A stretch of 64,000 bases of DNA from positions 10,465 to 74,464 of IMG/VR virus record IMGVR_UViG_3300035180_002703. One strand, 5' to 3'. The notes beneath the pieces are model-generated. The model was given only the letters and a program-made list of their open reading frames with translations. It made no database searches and was not told the DNA's origin. Positions within the stretch are counted from its first letter, which is position 1, and the number at the start of each line of letters is the position of its first letter. The translations under genes were made by a program, and so were the position numbers. Of the stretch, positions 17,444 to 62,709 are shown in pieces. This stretch comes from a virus.

Positions 17444-18526
17444 ATGCGTAAGATACAGAGGCTGTATCCACAACACGTGCTTGCAATGAATGAGCAGTGG
17501 GCGGCATTAGCGAGCGATCGTAGCCGCCCACTAGTAGAACTAGAAGCTAAAGCTAGAGAGATAATCCCAAAAGTCGGACATGCAACGGTATGGCGAGCCA
17601 GAAGTCTAGTCCTGGAAGGCAAAATCCCCGCACCGGGTTCCCTCAAACGATACGACACACCCCACGTCGGTGACAAAAAGATCGGGGACATTGACTGGCG
17701 GGAAATGCTGAATGCCACAAAGGAGTTTCAGCAGTATCGCAAAACAACATCGTGGAGCAATGATCAGGCGACATGGGAACTGGACACAGACCAGGAGGTC
17801 GGCATTGCCATTATCGGAGATTGGCACTGGGGTTCTTGGGGCACCGACTATTCGCTGATCGAGCGGTTGACGGACGAAATTGTAAACACCCCGAACCTTT
17901 ACATAATCGTCGTTGGCGATATGGAGCAAATGGCAATCCGTCTCCGTGGTGTTTCAGAAGTTACTGACAACATGTGGCCTCCGGAATTGCAGCATGCATT
18001 CACGGAGTCTTGGCTCAAGACAGTAAAAGACAAGATCGTCTGCGCATGTTGGGACAACCACAGCGTAGAGCGAGAAGAGCGAGGATCGGGCACATCTGTC
18101 TACAAGTGGATCATGTCAAGGCATGTTACCTACTTCAACGGCATTGCCCATGTGGACGTCCGCATAGGCAGGCAAATGTACCGGTTTGCCGTTTCGCACA
18201 GGTTTCGCGGTTCCTCAATGTTCAACCCTACGCATGCCCATGGCAGATACATTCGGCAGGAGGGACATGATAGGGAGATTGTTGTCGCGGGTGATACGCA
18301 CGAGCCGGGAATGATGCAGTGCATGATCGGCCAAAGACAGCGAACGCTGCTCAATTGTGGGTCGGCGCAGGTGGACTCGGGGTATGGCAAGCGATACTTT
18401 TCGCTCAAGACTGCAGAGGTGTTCCCAATGGTGGCTTTGCGACCGGACATACACAGAGTGACGCCATACTGGTCGATTACCCACTGGCTACGAATAGCTG
18501 GCCATGAGGATCAGCAGGAGGGATAG
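17444..18526 (+). CDS. calcineurin-like metallophosphoesterase
   Basis: GDWHWG, VVGD, DNH, GDTH. Confidence 0.8.
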   Translation: MRKIQRLYPQHVLAMNEQWAALASDRSRPLVELEAKAREIIPKVGHATVWRARSLVLEGKIPAPGSLKRYDTPHVGDKKIGDIDWREMLNATKEFQQYRKTTSWSNDQATWELDTDQEVGIAIIGDWHWGSWGTDYSLIERLTDEIVNTPNLYIIVVGDMEQMAIRLRGVSEVTDNMWPPELQHAFTESWLKTVKDKIVCACWDNHSVEREERGSGTSVYKWIMSRHVTYFNGIAHVDVRIGRQMYRFAVSHRFRGSSMFNPTHAHGRYIRQEGHDREIVVAGDTHEPGMMQCMIGQRQRTLLNCGSAQVDSGYGKRYFSLKTAEVFPMVALRPDIHRVTPYWSITHWLRIAGHEDQQEG

Positions 18527-18528
18527 CG

Positions 18529-18786
18529 GTGTCGGAATGTGGATGTGATCGCGGGCAAGACGGCGGAGACGTTGTGAACCATCCGAGGCACTATTGCCGG
18601 GGCGGGATGGAGGCTAAGGACATTATAGCCGCAATGATGCCACCCGAACTAACCGGGTATCAATGCTGGTGCTGGGGGAATGCCATGAAGTATATGCTCC
18701 GGCTCGGGTGTAAAGGCCCTGCGCTCGAAGACTTGGACAAGGCGTTGGTGTACCTGCGATGGCTGCGGGAGTCATTGCGCAGGTAG
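18529..18786 (+). CDS. DUF3310 family phage protein
   Basis: VNHPRHY...GNAMKY..R...K...EDLDKA..YL. Confidence 0.85.
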   Translation: MSECGCDRGQDGGDVVNHPRHYCRGGMEAKDIIAAMMPPELTGYQCWCWGNAMKYMLRLGCKGPALEDLDKALVYLRWLRESLRR

Positions 18787-18809
18787 CCGCCTTCAAATAG
18801 AATAACCCG

Positions 18810-18895
18810 AAAGTGATCAAGGCCCTGCCATCCGTGGCGGGGCCTCTATGTATCACCATACGAACAGGCAATACTTGCCTGCTTACGGCTTGATT
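18810..18895 (-). ncRNA. candidate small RNA carrying a variant leader motif
   Basis: Follows a minus-strand promoter, begins UCAAGCCGUAAGC plus a hairpin, ends at the terminator; no ORF with SD seen. Confidence 0.45.
18820..18845. terminator. hairpin terminator, possibly bidirectional
   Basis: AGGCCCTGCCA/TGGCGGGGCCT stem at the end of the late gene block. Confidence 0.55.
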
Positions 18896-18901
18896 GGTGA
18901 C

Positions 18902-18930
18902 AGTATACCACAACCCAAATGGCATGTCAA
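18902..18930 (-). promoter_or_regulatory. leftward sigma70 promoter
   Basis: TTGACA-17-TATACT with extended TG. Confidence 0.7.
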
Positions 18931-18966
18931 GCCTTTTCCGCGAATTTTCGAAACTTTCTCGCTGGC

Positions 18967-18995
18967 TTGACTTTTCCGGGAAGGCGTGATATAAT
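18967..18995 (+). promoter_or_regulatory. sigma70 promoter
   Basis: TTGACT-17-TATAAT with extended TG. Confidence 0.85.
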
Positions 18996-19030: not shown

Positions 19031-19348
19031 ATGCGAGAGGTAGTTGACTGGAAGCTGTATGACACAGCTAATGCCATTCGTGTAGCTGACTTGGGTGATG
19101 ACACGGAGGGCACTACCGAATGGATGGCCGGGCTTTACTGGGAGCCGAACATGGCGGAATGGTTTCTGGCAGGATTTGGCAGGTCAGAGTCCCCGCTGGC
19201 GATTGAGACAGAGGCAGGCAAGAAGTCTAACTTCGCTGGGATCAAGCCAATGTCTCAACGCGAAGCTGAGGATTTCGTGGATCGGTTTGGGGATGATGAA
19301 GCACGTCGTGAGCTAAATGACTTTCTTGCTAATGGCAGGAAGGACTGA
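19031..19348 (+). CDS. hypothetical protein, YDT paralog family
   Basis: VVDWKLYDT...LY...WFL, shared with 20693, 25704, 26061. Confidence 0.7.
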   Translation: MREVVDWKLYDTANAIRVADLGDDTEGTTEWMAGLYWEPNMAEWFLAGFGRSESPLAIETEAGKKSNFAGIKPMSQREAEDFVDRFGDDEARRELNDFLANGRKD

Positions 19349-19552: not shown

Positions 19553-20677
19553 ATGGTCATTGAGTGCAAGCGCAAAGAACTGTTCGATGCGATGGATCGC
19601 GTCTCATACGCCATCTCAAATCGAACGTCTCTGTCGGTAATGAAGCACGTGCTCATGGAAACTGTCGATAGCGACCATGTGAAGCTGAGCGCGGGCGACC
19701 TTGAGCTGTTTGTGTCAATCACCATTCCGGCATCCGTGAGGCAGACTGGTGCCTGCACGATGGAGGCCAAGCGCGGGTCGGAGCTGATTGGATCGCTTGT
19801 TGGGAATGAGGTGCTTCTCGATACGAAGCGTGGGTTTGCCGTGCATGTCGCCTGCGAAAATTCCAGGTACGTGCTCGCAGGTTTGGACCCCGAGAGCTAT
19901 CCGAGTCTGCCAGAAGTGACAGATGAAATCAGCTTCACGATTCCCCAGCGCACATTGCGAGAGATGATCAGGCAGACTGCGTTCGCGATGTCGAAAGATT
20001 ACTCGCGAGCAAACATAGCTTGCACACTGTTCGACCTTGAGGAAAGCAAGCTCACCTTGGTTGCCACCGACTCGTTCCGTCTGGCATGCCGAAGTGAATC
20101 TGTCACGGATTCCAGCGGCTCGGCTCAGTCTCTTGTGCCCTCCCGCGCCATCACGGAGTTGAGCAAGCTGCTGGAGGACGCTCCGGGCGATGTGCGTGTG
20201 AGTGCGACATCCAGTCAGATCAAGTTCTCCATGCCGAACGACATCACGTTCATTTCCAGGCTTGTCGACGGCAAGTACATTGGTTACAAGCGCGTCATCC
20301 CGGAGTCTGCGTCTATCAAGCTCAAGACCCCGCGGCGCGAGCTGCTTGATGCCGTTCGTCGCGCAGAGATTGTGGCTTCCCGCGTTTCCCACCGCGTCAC
20401 ATTCCATTGGCATGAATCGACGCTGGCTGTCACTGCCAACGAAACGGACGGTGGCAGCGCGCGCGAGCTCGTGGATGGCTACTACGGAGCGCGTACTGAC
20501 GTCAACATGGCGTTCAACGCGTTGTATCTTTCCGACGCGCTCAAGGCTATGGACGGCCAATTCGTGGAGTTCCAGATGGATGACCCGGAGCGAACGGTGG
20601 TTCTGAGGCCTGTGGATGAAAAGGACAAGCCCGCACCGGACTACCTTTGCATAGTCATGCCGATGAAGAGCTTCTAG
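19553..20677 (+). CDS. dnaN: DNA polymerase III beta sliding clamp
   Basis: 374 aa; LVATDSFRLA, SRLVDGKY, FNALYL.D.L, C-terminal IVMPM. Confidence 0.95.
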   Translation: MVIECKRKELFDAMDRVSYAISNRTSLSVMKHVLMETVDSDHVKLSAGDLELFVSITIPASVRQTGACTMEAKRGSELIGSLVGNEVLLDTKRGFAVHVACENSRYVLAGLDPESYPSLPEVTDEISFTIPQRTLREMIRQTAFAMSKDYSRANIACTLFDLEESKLTLVATDSFRLACRSESVTDSSGSAQSLVPSRAITELSKLLEDAPGDVRVSATSSQIKFSMPNDITFISRLVDGKYIGYKRVIPESASIKLKTPRRELLDAVRRAEIVASRVSHRVTFHWHESTLAVTANETDGGSARELVDGYYGARTDVNMAFNALYLSDALKAMDGQFVEFQMDDPERTVVLRPVDEKDKPAPDYLCIVMPMKSF

Positions 20678-26495: not shown

Positions 26496-26509
26496 ATGTA
26501 CATAGTCAA

Positions 26510-26540
26510 GCCGATAAGCCGCCAACAAGAGGCGCACGGC
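26510..26540 (+). ncRNA. structured leader motif copy 4
   Basis: GCCG AUAAGC CGCC AACAAGA GGCG CA CGGC. Confidence 0.8.
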
Positions 26541-26865: not shown

Positions 26866-26930
26866 TGCCGAAACCGGCTTTCGGGCCGGTCTGCACCGGG
26901 CGGCTCCCGGCGCACTGAAGAGGCAAGCCG
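26866..26930 (+). ncRNA. type II hammerhead ribozyme
   Basis: UGCC GAAA-stem III(UUCG)-GUC-stem I-CUGAAGA GGCA; loop I CGGCU complementary to 3' AGCCG. Confidence 0.92.
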
Positions 26931-26959
26931 ATAAGTCGCCACCTTAGGGGGCGCAACGG
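26927..26959 (+). ncRNA. structured leader motif copy 5
   Basis: CCG AUAAGU CGCC A..GGCG CAA CGG. Confidence 0.8.
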
Positions 26960-35503: not shown

Positions 35504-35616
35504 ATGGTAACGTTTTGGTCAATTTCAGGCTGTTTGGTAAGGCTTTGGTAAGGCGATGGTCAAGTCCTGGTAAGTTTGGTAAGGCTTTGGTAAGCTTCTG
35601 GTAAGGCTTTGGTACC
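35494..35616. repeat. 11-bp-phased TGGTAAG array
   Basis: TGGT at 35494, 35505, 35516, 35535, 35546, 35557, 35568, 35577, 35588, 35599, 35610. Confidence 0.85.
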
Positions 35617-46116: not shown

Positions 46117-46146
46117 TTGACAGTTTCGCGGGTTATTATCTATAAC
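46117..46146 (+). promoter_or_regulatory. probable sigma70 promoter
   Basis: TTGACA-18-TATAAC. Confidence 0.55.
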
Positions 46147-46246
46147 ACGGCGAATCTGCTGGTACGCCGTGTCCGTGCGCCGTAGCTTATCGGCGCGTAT
46201 GATATAGGCGGAAGGTCGTACTACTTGCGGTCTTCCGCCATTCTTT
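46145..46246 (+). ncRNA. candidate small RNA complementary to the leader motif
   Basis: Three consecutive inverted repeats, the last terminator-like; middle segment CCGUGCGCC-GUA-GCUUAUCGGC. Confidence 0.55.
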
Positions 46247-50769: not shown

Positions 50770-52605
50770 GTGATGACCTTCGGCATTGATTCCGGCCCTG
50801 TTGGCGAGGCTATTTCCAACGCATTGCAGTCTTTTCGCCCTAGTTTGTGGGATCGATTGCGCGGGTCCGACCACTTGCGCGGTCTTGCATTGGAACACAT
50901 GGCGAAGGCGTATGTGAGCGCCGAAAAGCGCACGCTGGAGGCTGCAGAGCAGGGCGCAGTTGTTGCACAGACGCTAATGCTTGGTGGGCGATATGGAACC
51001 ATGCAGGGCGTGCAGGATAAGACGGAGGCCACATGCTCAGCATTGCGGCTGTATGCGCGTCAATGCGAGGCGGTTGCTGCCATTCGCCAATGCAGGGTTT
51101 CTCAGATCGCGCCTTTCGCTAGCCGTCCGGAGATCGATCATGGGATGCCTAAGGGGCCCGGGTTCCGCGTTCGGATGACAAGCCGATCTCATGAAGCAAC
51201 CCCAGAAGATCGGCACAACATCGAGCGTTTGGAGCAGATGATCGAGGAATGCGGGTTTGTAGAGCCGCCGGAGGACGAACGTCCGATAACCTACCAGCGA
51301 GGGTTCGAGCCATTCCTTCGCATGGTTATCGACGATAGGTTGACGTTGGGCTGGTTCGCCGTGAGGATGTGGAGCGACAAAGAAGACCCGCACCGGTTCC
51401 CCGTTGTTAGTTTCCAGGCTTGGGACGCAGGAAGAATCCAGCACGCTCGTGGTTGGGTTGACAAGGTAAAACGCGGGGTGCCTGTGCATACGCCCCCCGT
51501 GGATATGCGCGAGGACCCACATGGGCGAGTGCGATATGTGGAGGTCGGCGAGGGCTCGTCTACCGGCAGCGTGATTGCTCAATACACGGACAAGCAAATG
51601 GCGATGTGGATCGGGCAGCCTCGCACTGATACTCGCCTCAACGGGTATGGGCTAGGTGAATGTGAGTTGGCGATGTCCTCCGCGGCGTCGTGGGTATATG
51701 CGAGGCAGTACAATTCGCTTCGCTTCCGCCGAGATAGTCTGCCCAGAGGCTTCCTGACTGTGTTTGGCAATGTGGACGAACACGCATTGCAGCGCATCCG
51801 GCTTTCGTTTGCTCAGCAGGGCACTGGGGTGGATAATTCGCGGAGCTTCCCGATTGTGCACGGAACGCCCCAGACGGGGTCGTCCATTCAATGGACGCCG
51901 ATCGACATGTCCTCAAGAGACATGGAATACACCCAGTTCTTTTACACGTTGGGAGTGATCATCCACGCGTTGTTCCAGATTCACCCAGACGAAACCGGGT
52001 TTGCCAGCGCGTCCCCGTTCCGTGCCGCTCTGTCCGAACCTTCTCCGGAGTCACAGCTCAAATGGTCTCAGGACAGAGGGCTGAACGACCTTCTGCGGAG
52101 CGTCGCGTCGTTTATGAACCGGCAGATCGTCTGGCGTCTCTATCCAGATCGTCGGTACTCGTTCGAGTTTGTTGGGCTGGGTGATTATGATCGAATGCAG
52201 CGTGTCGAGTATTACGCTCAGATGCTGGCAACTGGCATGATTACTCCACGCGATGTGTGGGCGGAGCTTGACCAGCCGCTCCCAGAGGGCCTTGAGGATC
52301 ACCCAGCATGGGACTTGCCGATGCCGTTTGCTCAGGGGCTTCAGTATGTTGACTCTCAGCGGCAGCAGGCGATTGCGGAACAGCAGCAGCAACAGCAGCA
52401 GGCCCAGGGGCAGGAGGCGCACCAGGCGAGCATGGACGCCCATCGCATGCAGATGATGGCGCAAAGCGGCCAGCAGCAGATGGAGGGTGGTGAAGAGGGA
52501 GATGAAGAGAACGGGCAGGTCGATAGGTCTGCGGGTTATTCTATGCAGAAAGCGTTGGCAGACATACCGATCTATCTAGAGCCGCTATTGGGGCGGCACG
52601 CGTAA
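50770..52605 (+). CDS. portal protein (SPO1/Twort-like)
   Basis: PRTD...GYGLGECE, PRGFL, RDMEY, HPDETGF, SQDRGL..LL. Confidence 0.88.
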   Translation: MMTFGIDSGPVGEAISNALQSFRPSLWDRLRGSDHLRGLALEHMAKAYVSAEKRTLEAAEQGAVVAQTLMLGGRYGTMQGVQDKTEATCSALRLYARQCEAVAAIRQCRVSQIAPFASRPEIDHGMPKGPGFRVRMTSRSHEATPEDRHNIERLEQMIEECGFVEPPEDERPITYQRGFEPFLRMVIDDRLTLGWFAVRMWSDKEDPHRFPVVSFQAWDAGRIQHARGWVDKVKRGVPVHTPPVDMREDPHGRVRYVEVGEGSSTGSVIAQYTDKQMAMWIGQPRTDTRLNGYGLGECELAMSSAASWVYARQYNSLRFRRDSLPRGFLTVFGNVDEHALQRIRLSFAQQGTGVDNSRSFPIVHGTPQTGSSIQWTPIDMSSRDMEYTQFFYTLGVIIHALFQIHPDETGFASASPFRAALSEPSPESQLKWSQDRGLNDLLRSVASFMNRQIVWRLYPDRRYSFEFVGLGDYDRMQRVEYYAQMLATGMITPRDVWAELDQPLPEGLEDHPAWDLPMPFAQGLQYVDSQRQQAIAEQQQQQQQAQGQEAHQASMDAHRMQMMAQSGQQQMEGGEEGDEENGQVDRSAGYSMQKALADIPIYLEPLLGRHA

Positions 52606-55038: not shown

Positions 55039-58000
55039 TTGCGCATGAAACTGATTATCGGTGGTATTGTTCGCTTTATGAAGGCTGTCCGTGCTCGCGC
55101 TCGTGATGTGGGCATGGGCTCATTGTTTGATACGGACGTCTCTGAGCCCCAGCCGAAGACGTCAGAACCTCCAAAGCCCCGAACGAACCATTCCACCAGT
55201 CCCCAGCGGACTCGTGCGACTACTGCCCCCAAAAGCCGTGCGGCCAAGCCGAAAAGCCCGGCGGCTCACATGGGGAGTTTGTTTGACTTTGATGGAGGTG
55301 ATCTGTTTGACAATGGCGGAATAGAGTTCTATCATGAATCTGGTGGAAACAATCAGAAGGCGTCTGCGCAGCCGGAGACCCGCCCAAAGCCGGAGCCCCA
55401 CCCAAAGCCAGAGCCCCGCCCCGAGCGGCCTCGCAATACTACCGGCACCAAAAGCCGCGTGGCCAAGCCGAAGAGCTCGTCGGCTCATATGGGGAATTTG
55501 TTTGACTTTGATGAAGGCGATCTGGTTGACAACAGCGGAATAGAGTTCTATCATGAGTCTGAGGGTAAGAGCCAGGAATCGCCTGCACAGCATGAGCACG
55601 GCGAGGCCGAGCAGCACGATGTTGGCACTGTTGCCGATTGGGAGTTCGAGCACAAGCACCCGCGCGCGCAGTCTGGCACCCCGACATATAACCCGGAAAC
55701 TGGCAAGCAGATCAAGCCGGGTCAGTTTGCACCTAAGCAGGACACTGGAGAGGACGAAGAGACACCAAAGGAGGGTGGAGATGTTGACACATTGGGGGCT
55801 TCTGTACATGAAGCACCTGAAGCAGTTCAGGCCGAAGCTGTACAGAGAAATGAAGAAAGCGGGAGAGCTGGAGAAGTTCGCCCTGAGGGCACAGGAGTCG
55901 GCGAAAGACATGTTCGAGATACTGGTGAGGCGAGGGGTGGACCCGCACGACGCGAAGATCAGGGCGGAGAGAACGTACATCCTGCTTCCGGACGAAAAGG
56001 AAGTGCCCGACCTAGCGAACAACCCGTATCAGACCGGATAGAACCTGCCCATGCCGATGTAGAGATTGTCGGCCAGTTTTCTGCGCCGACGAAGGTCGGG
56101 AACGACTACCGAATTCGCGAAGACGACGATATTGGCGGAGGCAACGAGAGGGAGAAGCTCGACCGCAACATGGAGGCTATCCGAATACTGAAAAGCCTCC
56201 AGGAAAGCGGTAGAATGGCAACGCCTGAAGAGCAGGCGAAGCTGGCGTTGTATACCGGATGGGGATGGGCGCAGGAAGTCTTCAGGTCTCGGTATGTAGA
56301 CAGCCGGTGGAGTAAAGACTTCGATGAGTTGGAGGACCTGCTAACTGGGGAGGAATACGAGGCGGCAAGGGACTCTATTGTCAATGCCCACTACACATCC
56401 AAAGAAGTTGTCGAATCAATCTATGGCGTTCTGCGCGGAACCGGGTTCTATGGTGGCCGCGTCCTTGAGCCTGGGTGCGGAGTTGGCAACTTCATCGGCT
56501 TGATGCCACCCGACATGTGGGCGCGATCTCAGATTACCGGCGTGGAGAAGGAAACCATTGCCGGGTCGATCGCAAAGCACCTCTATCAAAGCGCAGATAT
56601 TCAGGTTACGCCAATGCAGAATTCTGTGTTGGCGGATAACTTCTACGACCTCGCTATTGGCAACGTCCCGTTTGGCAACTTCGGTGTTGCCGACATAGAA
56701 TTTGAGCGAACGGGCAGGCAGTACCTCGAACGATCCATCCACAACTACTTCTTCGCCAAAGCGCTTGACAAGGTGCGCCCGGGTGGCTTGCTGTGTATGA
56801 TCACGTCGACATACGCAATGGACTCCCAAACTGGGAAGCTGTGGCGCGAATACATGGCCAAACATGCTGATCTGTTGATGGCATTGAGGTTGCCGGGGGA
56901 AACTTTTGCAAAGAACGCTGGGACGAAGGTGACTTCGGACATTCTGTTCTTGCGGAAGCGCATGCCTGGCGAAACGGGAACCGGCGAAAAGTGGGCGGAT
57001 GTTGTTGAGACACCCATAGACATCAATCTTGCCAACGGCGAGAAGCACACGGTGACTGTGGAGCTCAATGAATACTTTAGGGACCATCGCGACCACGTGT
57101 TGGGCAAGATGTTGAATTACAACCCGCTCATACCGAATGGCCGTGGCACCTCTGTGACTAGCGATGGGAGGAACATCCAGAGAGCCATTGCGCAGGCCGG
57201 CTTGAAGCTTCTAGGCATCTACAAGGCGTCGGAGACGCCCAACAATAAGCCCGATGCGGATAGGATTATTGCCCCGGAGGGTTTGAACCAGGGCGGCTTT
57301 ATCGTGCAAGGCGGTAAGGTCTATGTGCGGGAAGGCCGCGAACTTGTTCCGCGCAACGTGTCCCCGACGGACGTGCGCAAATACGAGCGAATGACCGCGT
57401 TGAGAGATCATACGCGCGCGCTGATCATTGCAATGGGGAGCCATGATTCAACAGATGCTGAAATAGCCTCCATGCAGTCTGATCTCACCAATTTGTATTC
57501 GTCCTTCTACAACAACCACGGCTACCTGCATGACCCAAAGAACGTTCGCACGTTTGGAGATGACCCCGACTACCCGCTGTTGTTGGGGTTGGAAACCAAG
57601 AGTGGCAATCGGTGGGTGAAGTCCGATATCTTCACGAAGCGGACCATTGTGCCTGCGTCCAAGGCGACCCACGCCGATAGTGCTCGCGACGCCATGATGA
57701 TCTCCCTACGGGAGAACGGCGGAATCGATCTGGAGCACATGGCGAATCTAACTGGGAAGTCGCAGGAAGAGGTGCAGGCCGAGCTTGTCCGAACCAGTGT
57801 GGCGTTTGTCAATCCAGGTGGAAGCCTAGAAACGGCGGATTCTTATCTGTCTGGAGACGTTAGAAAGAAGCTGGCCGAGGCACGTGCTGCTGCCAAGCTC
57901 GACCCAAAGTATAAGCCAAACGTGGATGCGCTTGAGGCGGTGCAGCCGGTCGATCTGGCACCAGGCGAGATTGATGCGAATTTTGGTGCTCCGTGGATAC

Positions 58001-61000
58001 CCAACGATGTCATCGTCGAGTTCATGAACCAGATCATCGGTTACACTAGAGATCACAGTGCGGAATTCAACGAAGTTGACGGTGAATGGAGGCTGGACAC
58101 CGGCCCGCTTACTCGCACGTGGAGCCCCGCCCGGCGGCAGTTTGAAACTGAGGAAGTAGACATCCTGAAAATGCTTCGCACGACTATAAATGGGAAGCAT
58201 ATTGTTGTGTACAAGACGGAGGGGTATGGAGATACCGCGCGCAGAGTAGTGGATGCGGTGGCCACAGAGGTGGCTCAGCAGCGGCAGGAGGCATTGCGCA
58301 ACGAGTTCCGGAAGTGGGCGTGGTCAGACCCGGAGCGTGCGGAAAGCCTTGCGAAACGTTACAACGTTATGTTCAACAATCTGCGCCAGCGCCAATACGA
58401 CGGATCGCACCTAGAGTTGCCCGGATTGTCTGCCGGTTGGGCGGCACCGGGGAAGATGCATAAGCATGTGAAGGACGCTATTTGGCGTCAGCTCCAGAGT
58501 GGCACGACACTTTTGGCACACGCGGTCGGCGCTGGGAAGACTGCCGAGATGATCGGCGCGGCTATGGAAATGCGCCGGTTGGGAATGGCGCGCAAGCCGA
58601 TGTTTGTTGTCCCAAACGGTCTTGTTGGGCAATGGGCAGAGGAAATCAGGGGCATGTATCCGGGTGCGAAGGTGCTCATGACTACTCCGCAGGACTTTAC
58701 GCCGAGCCGCCGTCGGGCACTGGCAGCTAAGATCGCGACGGGGGATTGGGATGCGGTTCTGGTAGCTCATTCCCACTTTACCAAATTGCCACTGTCTGCT
58801 GATGCGCAAGAAGAGTACATCAAAGAACAAATTGAGCAAATAGAACACGCCATTGCGTCCAAAGACCGCACGGAAACAATGAAGAAGCTGGTCAAGGCTA
58901 AGCTGCGGCTTGAGGTGAAGCTACAGAAGCTGAGAATGAGCCAGGATGAAAACACGATCCCGTTCGAATCCCTTGGCGTCGATCAGCTGTTCGTAGATGA
59001 ATTCCACTTGTTCAAGAACCTTGGGATAACGACCAAGCGCCAAAGCGTTGCTGGCTTGCCTACTGGGAATGGAAGCGCGCGTGCGCTCGATATGTACATG
59101 AAGACGCAACATCTCATTAGGCGGAACAACGGTCGAGGCGTCGTCGCGGCGACCGGAACACCGATTGCTAATTCTATTGCCGAGATGTACACCATGATGC
59201 GATACCTGTCGAACGACAGGCTGAGGGCGGCTGGCCTGGGGCATTTCGACTCTTGGGCTAACAACTATGGTGAGGTGGTGAGCTCGGTTGAGTTGAAGCC
59301 GAACGGCAAATATGGCGTTAGGCTAAGGTTCTCAAAGTTCACGAATGTTCCAGAACTCGCGGCCATGTACCAGCAGTTTGCCGACGTGAAGACGCAGGAG
59401 GACTTGAACCTAAAGCTGCCAAAGGCGAAGCGGCTTCCTGTGATTTGCCCGCCATCGCCATCTCAGATTGCATACATCAAACAGTTGCAGTATAGGGCTG
59501 AATCCATCTTGGGAGAACATGGAGAGCGACCACCGCTGAATGAAGACAACATGCTGAAGCTGATGTCCGACTGGAGGAAGTGTTCTCTTGATATAAGGCT
59601 GGTCGATCCTAGCGCTCCTGAAAACCCTGACAGTAAGGTCAACAGGTGCGTGACCAATGTGACGAATGTGTACAAACGTACGAAGGACAATCTCGGCACT
59701 CAGATATTGTTCCTCGATCTGGGCACACCAAAAACCAAGGATAACGCTCGGGCGTCTCGCGTTGACATTGATGCCCCAGACGAAAACGACTTGACTGCGG
59801 AGGAGAGAAGCCTCCAAACGAGCGTCTATGAGGACTTGCGCAAGAAGCTGATTGCTCAGGGCATCCCAGCACACGAGATTGCATTCATCCATGATGCCAA
59901 GACGCAGAAGGATAAGGTCGATCTATTTGATGACGTGAATCAGGGCAAGATTCGCGTGCTCATCGGCTCAACGGAAAAGATGGGTGTCGGGATGAATGCC
60001 CAGAAGAAAGTTGCCGCCCTGCATCACATCGATTGCCCGTGGCGTCCATGCGACCTCGAACAGCGAGAAGGACGGGCCATTCGACAGGGCAATGAAAACG
60101 AAGAAGTAGAACTCTATTTGTACGCCACCGGTGGTGAAGGCAACGCGATGTCTGCTGACACCTTGATGTATCAATACGTTGAGACAAAAGGCAAGTCGAT
60201 CAATCAGATACAGCAGGGCAAGACTGACGGACGGACGATGGATGACGTCGGACTGGTAATTACCGCCGGCGAAATGAAGGGACTATCCAGCGCTAACCCG
60301 CTTGTCCGGGAGAAGGTTGCTGTCGATAACGAGCTACATAAGCACGAGAGGCTGGCACAGGCACACATCATTGAACAGCAGAAAATTAGCTATCGGGCTC
60401 ATGTGATACCCAAAGAGAATGAAGAGCTTGCCAAGAAACTCAGAGTGATTGGCGATGACGAAAAGCACTACATGGCCAATAAGTCCGACCACTTCTCTGC
60501 GGTAATCGATGGGAAGACATATACGAACCCAGAGGAAGCGGGAAACATTATCAACAAGAAAATGATAGAGGCGCATTTTGCCCCTGGGGTATCCGCTGTC
60601 GGTTCGTTGGACGGGTTCACTATACTGATAAGAGGTGGCGAATCGCCAGAATTGTCGTTGACGCGCGACCCGACGGCTGCATCTAAAGGGTTGGCTGCCA
60701 CATACTACTGTGGGGTTGGCGACGGGGGCCGTTCGACGGCTGCCAAGATGACATATGCGTTATCTAGCATCCCCGGTCGCATCAAGCATATTCAAGAAAC
60801 GATTGAGAATAACAAGAAGGAGGCGGAGTCTCTGATGAATGCAATGCGCCCCTTTGAGCATCAAGAGAAGCTAGAAGAACTCCGCCGCCGTGCGGAGGAG
60901 ATCAACGAACAGCTTGGAGTCACCAAGAAGGATAACAGCGCATTCTCGGAAGATGACGATGAAGGCGACGATTCCGTTGACTATGAGGGCCTTGAAAAAG

Positions 61001-62709
61001 CGTTGTTGCGCACCGTGATCATCTCTGGGTCCAACAAGCAAACTGTCGATCGTGCGATGGATGCAATCGAGAAGGCGATCGCGCTGAATAGGCAGACGGG
61101 CAGCATGCAGGGTAAGGCATCATACATGACGCCGATGCGGTCTTTGGCGAATGCCGCTCAATCTGTGTATTCGGGCGCTCGCCGGGCTATTCAGACGGTT
61201 CGATCCCCCCGCATGGCGTCTGTGGCAGCTGCTGCGCGCATGAGGGGCGTTGGTGGAAACCAGTATGAAGCTGCGGACAGCGAGCATGCTGCGCGCGTCG
61301 TGTCTAAGTTGGGAGCGAAGCGCGGCATGTCCGTGGGCGAGCCTCGTAGAATGATCTCGGCTGGGTCCAGAGGTCAGGCTGCGGTTGCACATACTGTAGA
61401 TGTCAATGGCCGGCAGGTCCAGATTACGCAGAAGCCGAAGGCGAGTTTGCAGAACATGCAGCGCCCACCGAAGGCAATGCCGAAGACGCCGAAGACGCCA
61501 TCGATGCCAAAGCAAGCCGTGCCACAAACAGAGAAGGTTATGCCGCCGGTCAACGTTCACGATCGTGCCGTAAACCTGGGCATGCATCATGTCGCGACAA
61601 ACACAAAGGCGAAGCGGAACTGGTATGGCAAGCGAATTGGCGATATTGCCTACCATGACTACCACCATCCGAGGCCGCACGTGGCAGCTCGGCTCCTCCG
61701 TAGCGGCCTGCAAGAGACGCACAAGGTGTCCAACATTCGCCGTCGCAAGGTCTACATGAAAAACGGTACGGCACGCGTAGTCGCGGCATTTCATGCCACG
61801 CCGAAGAATGGCGGTTCATCGCACATCATCAGCGTAATGAGGAAGAGCGTCGTCGATCCAGCCATGTGTCGTCCTATCGTCATCACAGGGGTCGAGGGGC
61901 TTATCTTCAAGGCGTTGGATGACCATGACGTCCGCCTGCTTTCGTTGTTTACCCGGCAGGAGGGTCCCCTGAGCAAAGCCGCCGGCGGAAATGGCCAGAT
62001 GGCTTTTGACTTTGGGGGCGAGTCGGAGAACCATTCGAAAAAGAAGCCGGAAGTCGGTGGCGGTAAGCGCAATGTCGTACGCAAGCCCGATGCCAAAACG
62101 CCAAGCGTTGGTGTCCTTCCCGGCTTAGGGGATGACCATCCGAACGAACCCGCGCCTAAAAGCCCGACGGTGGCTGCTCCCGCCAAGCCTCCGGCCACTT
62201 CCCCGAGCGTGGATGCCAAACCGACGGTTACTGTGAAGCCCGCCGACGATACCGATTATTCTGAACACAAGTCGCGGTATGAGAATGCGATGAGCAAGTA
62301 CAAAGAGGCCGATGAATGGCACGCCAAGACGCACCAGGCATACCGTAAGGGTGACGTTAGCCATAGGGGAATGGTGAATGCCATCGAGCGGCTTGAGGAC
62401 GCTCACCATGCATTGCTCGACGCGAACCATCGACTGCCTAGACACCTTAGGAAGGTCCCTCCGGAGCCTTCGTATAGTCTTCCTATCCCCAGAGAGCATG
62501 TAGATCAGTATCGCAAAGCGCGCGCCAACTACAACAAGGCCTCCGCTGAACACGATGAATTGTCTGCGAAGCACTCTCGCGGAGAGGTTGGCCGCCATGA
62601 GGTGGAGTCTGCTCGTAGGCGGAAGTTTGATGCTGGATTGGCGGCTATGGATGCGGACCGTAAGCTGACGTCGGCGCTTGAGCGGTTCAGATCACAGGGC
62701 GTTTATTGA
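55039..62709 (+). CDS. giant DarB-like virion protein: N6-adenine MTase + SNF2 helicase with low-complexity extensions
   Basis: LEPGCGVGNF, GNVPF, AHAVGAGKT, VDEFH, ATGTPIANS, QREGRAIRQGN. Confidence 0.9.
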   Translation: MRMKLIIGGIVRFMKAVRARARDVGMGSLFDTDVSEPQPKTSEPPKPRTNHSTSPQRTRATTAPKSRAAKPKSPAAHMGSLFDFDGGDLFDNGGIEFYHESGGNNQKASAQPETRPKPEPHPKPEPRPERPRNTTGTKSRVAKPKSSSAHMGNLFDFDEGDLVDNSGIEFYHESEGKSQESPAQHEHGEAEQHDVGTVADWEFEHKHPRAQSGTPTYNPETGKQIKPGQFAPKQDTGEDEETPKEGGDVDTLGASVHEAPEAVQAEAVQRNEESGRAGEVRPEGTGVGERHVRDTGEARGGPARREDQGGENVHPASGRKGSARPSEQPVSDRIEPAHADVEIVGQFSAPTKVGNDYRIREDDDIGGGNEREKLDRNMEAIRILKSLQESGRMATPEEQAKLALYTGWGWAQEVFRSRYVDSRWSKDFDELEDLLTGEEYEAARDSIVNAHYTSKEVVESIYGVLRGTGFYGGRVLEPGCGVGNFIGLMPPDMWARSQITGVEKETIAGSIAKHLYQSADIQVTPMQNSVLADNFYDLAIGNVPFGNFGVADIEFERTGRQYLERSIHNYFFAKALDKVRPGGLLCMITSTYAMDSQTGKLWREYMAKHADLLMALRLPGETFAKNAGTKVTSDILFLRKRMPGETGTGEKWADVVETPIDINLANGEKHTVTVELNEYFRDHRDHVLGKMLNYNPLIPNGRGTSVTSDGRNIQRAIAQAGLKLLGIYKASETPNNKPDADRIIAPEGLNQGGFIVQGGKVYVREGRELVPRNVSPTDVRKYERMTALRDHTRALIIAMGSHDSTDAEIASMQSDLTNLYSSFYNNHGYLHDPKNVRTFGDDPDYPLLLGLETKSGNRWVKSDIFTKRTIVPASKATHADSARDAMMISLRENGGIDLEHMANLTGKSQEEVQAELVRTSVAFVNPGGSLETADSYLSGDVRKKLAEARAAAKLDPKYKPNVDALEAVQPVDLAPGEIDANFGAPWIPNDVIVEFMNQIIGYTRDHSAEFNEVDGEWRLDTGPLTRTWSPARRQFETEEVDILKMLRTTINGKHIVVYKTEGYGDTARRVVDAVATEVAQQRQEALRNEFRKWAWSDPERAESLAKRYNVMFNNLRQRQYDGSHLELPGLSAGWAAPGKMHKHVKDAIWRQLQSGTTLLAHAVGAGKTAEMIGAAMEMRRLGMARKPMFVVPNGLVGQWAEEIRGMYPGAKVLMTTPQDFTPSRRRALAAKIATGDWDAVLVAHSHFTKLPLSADAQEEYIKEQIEQIEHAIASKDRTETMKKLVKAKLRLEVKLQKLRMSQDENTIPFESLGVDQLFVDEFHLFKNLGITTKRQSVAGLPTGNGSARALDMYMKTQHLIRRNNGRGVVAATGTPIANSIAEMYTMMRYLSNDRLRAAGLGHFDSWANNYGEVVSSVELKPNGKYGVRLRFSKFTNVPELAAMYQQFADVKTQEDLNLKLPKAKRLPVICPPSPSQIAYIKQLQYRAESILGEHGERPPLNEDNMLKLMSDWRKCSLDIRLVDPSAPENPDSKVNRCVTNVTNVYKRTKDNLGTQILFLDLGTPKTKDNARASRVDIDAPDENDLTAEERSLQTSVYEDLRKKLIAQGIPAHEIAFIHDAKTQKDKVDLFDDVNQGKIRVLIGSTEKMGVGMNAQKKVAALHHIDCPWRPCDLEQREGRAIRQGNENEEVELYLYATGGEGNAMSADTLMYQYVETKGKSINQIQQGKTDGRTMDDVGLVITAGEMKGLSSANPLVREKVAVDNELHKHERLAQAHIIEQQKISYRAHVIPKENEELAKKLRVIGDDEKHYMANKSDHFSAVIDGKTYTNPEEAGNIINKKMIEAHFAPGVSAVGSLDGFTILIRGGESPELSLTRDPTAASKGLAATYYCGVGDGGRSTAAKMTYALSSIPGRIKHIQETIENNKKEAESLMNAMRPFEHQEKLEELRRRAEEINEQLGVTKKDNSAFSEDDDEGDDSVDYEGLEKALLRTVIISGSNKQTVDRAMDAIEKAIALNRQTGSMQGKASYMTPMRSLANAAQSVYSGARRAIQTVRSPRMASVAAAARMRGVGGNQYEAADSEHAARVVSKLGAKRGMSVGEPRRMISAGSRGQAAVAHTVDVNGRQVQITQKPKASLQNMQRPPKAMPKTPKTPSMPKQAVPQTEKVMPPVNVHDRAVNLGMHHVATNTKAKRNWYGKRIGDIAYHDYHHPRPHVAARLLRSGLQETHKVSNIRRRKVYMKNGTARVVAAFHATPKNGGSSHIISVMRKSVVDPAMCRPIVITGVEGLIFKALDDHDVRLLSLFTRQEGPLSKAAGGNGQMAFDFGGESENHSKKKPEVGGGKRNVVRKPDAKTPSVGVLPGLGDDHPNEPAPKSPTVAAPAKPPATSPSVDAKPTVTVKPADDTDYSEHKSRYENAMSKYKEADEWHAKTHQAYRKGDVSHRGMVNAIERLEDAHHALLDANHRLPRHLRKVPPEPSYSLPIPREHVDQYRKARANYNKASAEHDELSAKHSRGEVGRHEVESARRRKFDAGLAAMDADRKLTSALERFRSQGVY
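55781..56041 (+). CDS. nested out-of-frame TnpV-like protein
   Basis: SD AAGGAGG/GGAG before ATG; WG..Y.KHLKQFRPKLYREMKKAGELEKF. Confidence 0.65.
   Translation: MLTHWGLLYMKHLKQFRPKLYREMKKAGELEKFALRAQESAKDMFEILVRRGVDPHDAKIRAERTYILLPDEKEVPDLANNPYQTG

Follow-up and report, generated by a model that had tools for sequence, protein, structure and literature searches.

The divergent promoters at the end of the rightward block

The window analysed here is a stretch of 64,000 nt comprising bases 10465–74464 of a single 74,464-bp virus contig, that of a phage whose hosts are uncultured bacteria, and all coordinates given below are window positions. Almost all phage genes reside on the plus strand. 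The long rightward block ends with a DUF3310 gene (18529–18786, plus strand), preceded by a metallophosphatase/exonuclease-like gene (17444–18526, plus strand), and it is the 3′ UTR of the DUF3310 gene to which the RNA predicted here is antisense. The earlier note had this RNA pointing into the tail/lysis genes. The first genes it faces are instead the DUF3310 and the metallophosphatase/exonuclease-like genes, the tail-fibre-like and beta-helix genes begin only ~2 kb past this pair in the direction of the RNA, and no lysis gene was identified. To the right, an early divergent promoter (TTGACT-17-TGATATAAT; 18967–18995, plus strand) drives a 105-aa gene (19031–19348) and the gene of a DnaN clamp (19553–20677), with the replication genes beginning just downstream of the divergent promoters.

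The leftward promoter is intergenic and was identified as a sequence match in a genome scan, with its −35 hexamer TTGACA at 18925–18930 (minus strand) and, at a spacing of 17 nt, the extended −10 element TGgTATACT at 18902–18910 (minus strand; TATACT itself at 18907–18902). TTGACA-17-TGgTATACT corresponds to 11/12 positions of the sigma-70 consensus plus an extended −10, and its TGGTA-type element places it in the same class as the early promoters of the phage. Within the whole 74,464-bp genome, 11/12 sites occur ten times on the plus strand and twice on the minus strand, the latter being the 18930–18902 site and a site at 369. Simulating 200 first-order Markov random sequences with the dinucleotide transitions of the genome yielded 0.13 such 11/12 sites per strand, none of them with the TG, and the minus-strand TTGACA-17-TATACT element is confirmed as a real-looking promoter. 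The arrangement back-to-back with the 18967 promoter was likewise confirmed, the two −35 hexamers being separated by 36 bp. Based on the promoter geometry, and in the register seen for the other promoters of the phage, transcription is predicted to start at A18895 (18894–18896, minus strand), 7 nt past the −10. A second back-to-back promoter pair is located at 340–406, where the promoter at 369 (minus strand) drives an 84-aa HTH regulator (344–90), which is a real gene, and the promoter at 378 (plus strand) drives a 505-aa protein with a methyltransferase-like N-terminus. Two near-identical promoter-like strings at 55307 and 55526 reflect an internal repeat of the 2556-aa ORF (55039–62709) in which they lie; this ORF combines an Eco57I-type methylase region with SNF2/helicase domains, a domain mix that we take to resemble that of phage P1 DarB.

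The region between the promoters contains an A/T-rich zone common to both. Two exact copies of the 12-mer CTTTTCCGSGAA, 38 bp apart and the only ones in the window, are found at the −35 hexamers, one at each. Box 1 (CTTTTCCGCGAA; 18933–18944, plus strand) adjoins the leftward −35, and box 2 (CTTTTCCGGGAA; 18971–18982, plus strand) overlaps, within the rightward promoter, the final two −35 bases and the first part of the spacer. Both boxes are candidate operators and could couple the two promoters. We compared the reads of four DNA runs at the promoter region, where the strains were too close to be informative. Two variants were nevertheless observed: an A18924G exchange in the spacer beside the leftward −35, found in metagenomes X3 and X4, and an insertion of 11 nt, about one helical turn, after 18964 in the strains of X3, X4, and X6. 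This insertion at 18964/18965 is positioned between the divergent promoters and between the two boxes, reading GATCAACATGT, or GATCAGCATGT in X6. In run X5, which contains a more distant relative, no alignment with the window was obtained to the left of 18965 at a threshold of 80%, as judged over the 30 bases adjoining the junction.

These features raise the question of a role at the level of the DNA, with divergent transcription and the two boxes forming a switch or a replication/packaging signal, and leftward transcription opening or priming the DNA or tuning the 18967 promoter. The two exact 12-mers, one per −35 and found only here in the window, the shared A/T-rich zone, the insertion of about one helical turn in other strains, and the replication genes just downstream would all fit such a role. 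We nevertheless consider it highly improbable: the promoter region contains neither iterons nor a DnaA-box-like array, the minus-strand-specific stem-loop described below would be left unexplained, and a better candidate origin is found elsewhere, at 35533–35614, where 7.6 iteron-like copies of an 11-bp unit (TTTGGTAAGGC) follow the DnaB gene and precede the next promoter.

To place the phage, we searched for its relatives and its host. No near relative was detected in a phage collection by megablast and blastn, and IMG/VR gave no match with the clamp, a 360-aa phage protein, or the exact promoter string as queries; searching IMG/VR with an alignment of the clamp resulted in a single distant match (L070) of 29% identity. 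A metagenome scan revealed one close relative (L001, 96%), whose contig begins at ~19203, to the right of the promoter region, whereas the remaining metagenome loci are host dnaN genes having nothing else in common with the phage. The DnaN clamp displays 40–44% identity to clamps encoded on the chromosomes of Armatimonadota MAGs, Chthonomonadales among them, and from this likeness we infer that the host is probably an Armatimonadota bacterium. The same identity also suggests a past capture of dnaN. The 360-aa phage protein has no prophage relative among 401 Armatimonadota genomes. The public sequencing runs containing the stretch are DNA runs from sediment, microbial-mat, and hot-spring metagenomes, with no RNA run among them; at the sediment and microbial-mat sites, the phage is an abundant one.

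Coding potential and fold of the predicted RNA

The first bases of the RNA as quoted in the earlier note were correct as read, and its description of the RNA as ORF-less holds. The sole frame past the predicted start, which is antisense to the DUF3310 gene, opens with an ATG at 18859 and encodes 78 aa up to 18623. This frame lacks a Shine–Dalgarno sequence, whereas strong GGAGG sites precede the genes of this phage, yielded no match against PHROG, and exhibits non-coding codon usage, its codon score being −0.165 compared with a mean of −0.059 for 190 minus-strand decoy ORFs and +0.19 for real genes. On the plus strand, a 40-aa ORF (18848–18970) was considered as a type I toxin and rejected by eye, as it is not hydrophobic. 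Similarly, a 12-mer (GGGTTATTCTAT) in common with position 52533 was discarded, since repeats of that length are expected by chance.

The first 44 nt from A18895 form a 5′-terminal stem-loop, SL1 (18852–18894, minus strand), of 18 pairs with a GUA triloop and a CAGGCAA/UUGCCUG core (18881–18865), leaving one 5′ base unpaired with the stem beginning at +2. The calculated fold energy for SL1 was −17.9 kcal/mol on the minus strand (z −4.98), whereas the plus strand exhibited −10.7 kcal/mol (z −2.81), being 7 kcal/mol weaker because three G·U pairs become A·C. Of the evidence internal to the sequence, this strand asymmetry, in a stem-loop that begins where the RNA is predicted to start, argues most strongly that selection may have acted on the minus-strand RNA.

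Following a linker of 4–5 nt, the GC-rich hairpin SL2 (18820–18845) exists as had been described, and based on its fold energy and terminator score it is a terminator candidate for both convergent transcripts. Its stability is marginally higher in the plus-strand RNA (−22.4 kcal/mol, compared with −19.5 kcal/mol for the minus strand), owing to a U·G pair in place of a C·A mismatch, and SL2 probably acts at the end of the rightward block as well. On the minus strand it is followed by a U-rich tail (UUGAUCACUUUCGGGUUAUUCUAUUU; 18794–18819), with 6 U in 12 positions and then UUAUUCUAUUU; its plus-strand side continues with AUACGAACAGG and has no U-rich tail. With a terminator score of −27, minus-strand SL2 is on a par with the evident terminator of the phage at 46207 (−27), on an E. 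coli-calibrated scale that is negative for every hairpin in this phage, and a terminator consensus scan made no call at SL2.

The full 96-nt RNA folds with a z of −4.3. Its best matches in Rfam, at 15.4 and 12.8 bits, fell short of the respective cut-offs of 37 and 45. A search of the phage genome for complementarity in trans revealed none longer than 11 nt, leaving the cis transcript as the only strong pairing partner. As the DUF3310 stop codon occupies 18784–18786 and the 3′ end of the RNA is predicted at ~18800–18818, the two would overlap in coding sequence only upon read-through.

Relationship to the motif A leaders

The phage carries 13 confirmed copies of a leader, motif A, between 21322 and 42826, with an architecture of P1, RUAAG-N, P2, a bulged A, a variable hairpin, P2′, CR, and P1′, followed by GGAGG. 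A first covariance model, derived from five copies, recovered eleven at E ≤ 0.3 in the 21–43 kb region, and these eleven were used to rebuild it; MAFFT alignments of the leaders misplaced gaps, and the other copies were realigned to the five-copy model instead. In the resulting alignment 98% of the cells were paired, compensatory changes were observed in 6/9 pairs, and no Rfam family corresponds to motif A. Using model R2 with filters off, the 13 true copies scored 19.9–49.5 bits, with 33 places in the window exceeding 8 bits. The next match after the 13 copies was the reverse strand of 46177–46196 at 19 bits. This “anti-leader” core, the reverse complement of a mini-leader, belongs to a unit at 46117–46246 (plus strand) having a promoter (TTGACA-18-TATAAC) and a strong terminator (46207–46239) followed by ATTCTTT, a candidate anti-leader small RNA. 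Furthermore, an Rfam Hammerhead_II match at 26866–26933 (plus strand; 38.7 bits, cut-off 37) ends inside leader copy 5. In 68 genomes of the likely host order, the leader model resulted in four weak matches, all lacking UAAG and a ribosome-binding site, which were judged to be chance.

The RNA had been proposed to start with a variant leader motif resembling copy 4, whose quoted context was correct (TCAAGCCGATAAGC at 26506–26519). A 13-nt leader-like string, TCAAGCCG-TAAGC, is indeed present in SL1 at 18892–18880, matching TCAAGCCG(A)TAAGC of copy 4 over 8 + 5 bases with one base missing, at an equal distance from the −10. Such a match is expected only ~0.004 times genome-wide, as estimated from pattern length and genome size, indicating that the likeness is not due to chance. 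The hairpin of the predicted RNA also begins one base past UAAG, as in the leaders, a half-motif (RUAAG-N-hairpin) that occurs ~28 times by chance in the genome outside the leaders. Aligning the whole cassette to that of copy 4 gave a score modestly above shuffles (z 2.6).

Scoring against the leader covariance model, which the earlier note had named as a check, placed the RNA far below the 13 copies: on its own it reached 4.2 bits with R2, in an alignment that requires bases upstream of the predicted start, and it is absent from the 33 window matches above 8 bits. The RNA has no closing P1′ strand, no bulged A, no CGCC-type P2, and no ribosome-binding site (no GGAGG). CACCA/UGGUG, the sole P1-like pairing, draws on bases that precede the predicted start, and a GCC/GGU pairing lies 8 nt away rather than 2, so that P1 is not closed as in the leaders. 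The shared GCCGUAAGC is base-paired within the best fold of SL1 instead of forming an internal loop, and GUAAG is present but paired. The predicted RNA is thus outside the leader family, and the proposed label should be given up or shrink to “13 bases in common with leader copy 4”.

This likeness is best explained by descent from a promoter–leader cassette that was duplicated, inverted, and since remodelled, and it is no sign of a functional leader. In a rival interpretation, any RNA made here would be functionless, the promoter being either an inverted and decayed cassette that still binds polymerase or a by-product of the A/T-rich zone shared with the 18967 promoter. In its 13-nt string and in register the element agrees with the copy 4 cassette, yet the other leader parts and the gene are gone, which fits decay, as does the failure of the X5 sequence to align just upstream of 18965. 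Antisense promoters are, moreover, reportedly often not conserved, to go by the title of one study. We consider a functionless relic unlikely, as it would be expected neither to retain an 11/12 match with TG nor to present a minus-strand-specific stem-loop of 18 pairs at the predicted 5′ end.

The earlier note had offered the RNA as a decoy for whatever binds the leaders. In such a scheme, its 5′ end would mimic the leader 5′ half (P1 strand, RUAAG, and hairpin) and titrate a leader-binding factor or the anti-leader RNA 46117–46246. Besides the identity to copy 4 in its register and the position of the hairpin relative to UAAG, the pairing of its first 20 nt with the anti-leader core (46172–46196) at −18.4 kcal/mol is compatible with this role, true leaders giving −13.7 to −22.2 kcal/mol. 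A duplex of this energy is, however, only within the top 6% of random 20-mers, over 45 nt it is at the background median, and the half-motif itself recurs ~28 times by chance. With a covariance score of 4.2 bits compared with at least 19.9 and the shared string buried in SL1, the decoy proposal is left without positive support, and we regard it as very unlikely. In an extended version, the RNA would be the third player of an RNA-only circuit, whose leader 5′ half soaks up the leader-binding factor or the anti-leader RNA and which, if true, would set the expression strength of the 13 leader-controlled early genes; to this we attach hardly any credence.

The second proposal of the earlier note, a conditional antisense transcript produced by antitermination, rests on the same leader motif, which the model leaves unsupported (4.2 bits). 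Its more general form is a long antisense transcript, with the polymerase passing SL2, perhaps conditionally, and continuing across the DUF3310, metallophosphatase, and tail-fibre genes, which would thereby be silenced at an early stage of infection. Judged by its score, SL2 with its tail falls short of a strong terminator, and the promoter belongs to the early class, both in keeping with such a transcript; for the N4-like phages LIT1 and LUZ7, late genes have been suggested to be silenced by antisense transcription (PMC9163698). Against this, the supposed antitermination motif is not a leader according to the covariance model, and SL2, with its U-rich tail on the minus strand, scores equal to the evident terminator at 46207. 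Taken together, a long transcript appears distinctly unlikely.

A candidate boundary RNA and its comparison with known systems

We conclude that the phage most likely makes a two-hairpin non-coding RNA of ~90 bases from the leftward promoter. As to its function, our leading but tentative interpretation, held with slightly less than even confidence and drawn by analogy to lambda oop, is a short and stable non-coding cis-antisense or boundary RNA at the end of the long rightward block. Host RNA polymerase with its primary sigma factor would start at ~18895 on the minus strand and stop mostly at the U-rich tail, releasing a non-coding RNA of ~80–100 nt composed of SL1, the 4–5-nt linker, SL2, and the tail. 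This RNA would lie wholly in the gap that separates the final stop codon of the rightward block from the first early promoter, and would be the exact antisense of the 3′ end of the rightward transcripts. Convergent firing could then interfere with polymerases leaving the upstream block, and a duplex formed with the 3′ UTR or a read-through transcript could expose the latter RNAs to double-strand-specific cleavage.

In favour of a boundary RNA are the promoter match and its early class, the lack of a coding signal, the fold of SL1, the U-rich tail confined to the minus side, the lack of longer complementarity in trans, and the precedents of oop and the N4-like phages; the only other minus-strand 11/12 site, moreover, drives a real gene. 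Evidence against it comes from SL2, whose plus-strand form has a small advantage in stability, and from the fact that no hairpin passes the E. coli-calibrated score, rendering the 3′ end of the RNA uncertain. In addition, the short form overlaps no coding region, unlike oop, and the X5 sequence left of 18965 did not align. The earlier suggestion of an antisense transcript against late genes is plausible with respect to the antisense role, with its nearest targets shifted to the DUF3310 3′ UTR and then to the DUF3310 and metallophosphatase genes.

The element itself is a well-founded prediction and follows a familiar pattern, that of ordinary phage antisense/boundary RNAs. If confirmed, it would provide a small regulatory RNA in a phage of a probable Armatimonadota host, a phylum with almost no phage molecular biology, and would illustrate how gene blocks are delimited in a phage with its genes nearly all on one strand. 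The unusual items of this genome are its neighbours, namely the covarying leader motif, the hammerhead–leader cassettes, and the candidate anti-leader RNA, and the predicted RNA matters mainly as a possible accessory to the leader system.

With respect to that system, the resemblance is confined to the 5′ part, where the copy 4 string, its distance from the −10, and the hairpin one base past UAAG are in common with the motif A leaders, whereas the RNA differs from them in lacking P1′, the bulged A, a ribosome-binding site, and a gene, in its P2, and in its score of 4.2 vs. 19.9–49.5 bits. A different comparison is provided by the N4-like Pseudomonas phages LUZ7 and LIT1, in which bidirectional terminators and transcripts antisense to late genes were mapped, with a silencing of these genes being proposed (PMC9163698). 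Common to both cases would be phage transcription opposing late genes of the reverse orientation, and hairpins used by converging transcripts. The transcripts of LUZ7 and LIT1 are, in contrast, long coding-operon transcripts mapped by experiment, whereas here we predict an isolated ORF-less unit in a phage with its genes almost all on one strand.

The lambda oop RNA has a promoter of its own, from which it is transcribed leftward up to a hairpin terminator, and is antisense to the 3′ end of cII, acting by an RNase III-linked cleavage (PMC5869508). There is neither sequence nor Rfam similarity between the two RNAs, the host phylum differs, ~52 bases of oop overlap the cII coding region whereas the predicted short form covers only the 3′ UTR, and a role for RNase III here would be by analogy. 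Like oop, the predicted RNA is short, non-coding, and leftward, has a sigma-70 promoter to itself, a hairpin terminator candidate, and no ORF, converges on a rightward transcript to whose 3′ end it is antisense, and adjoins the replication genes.
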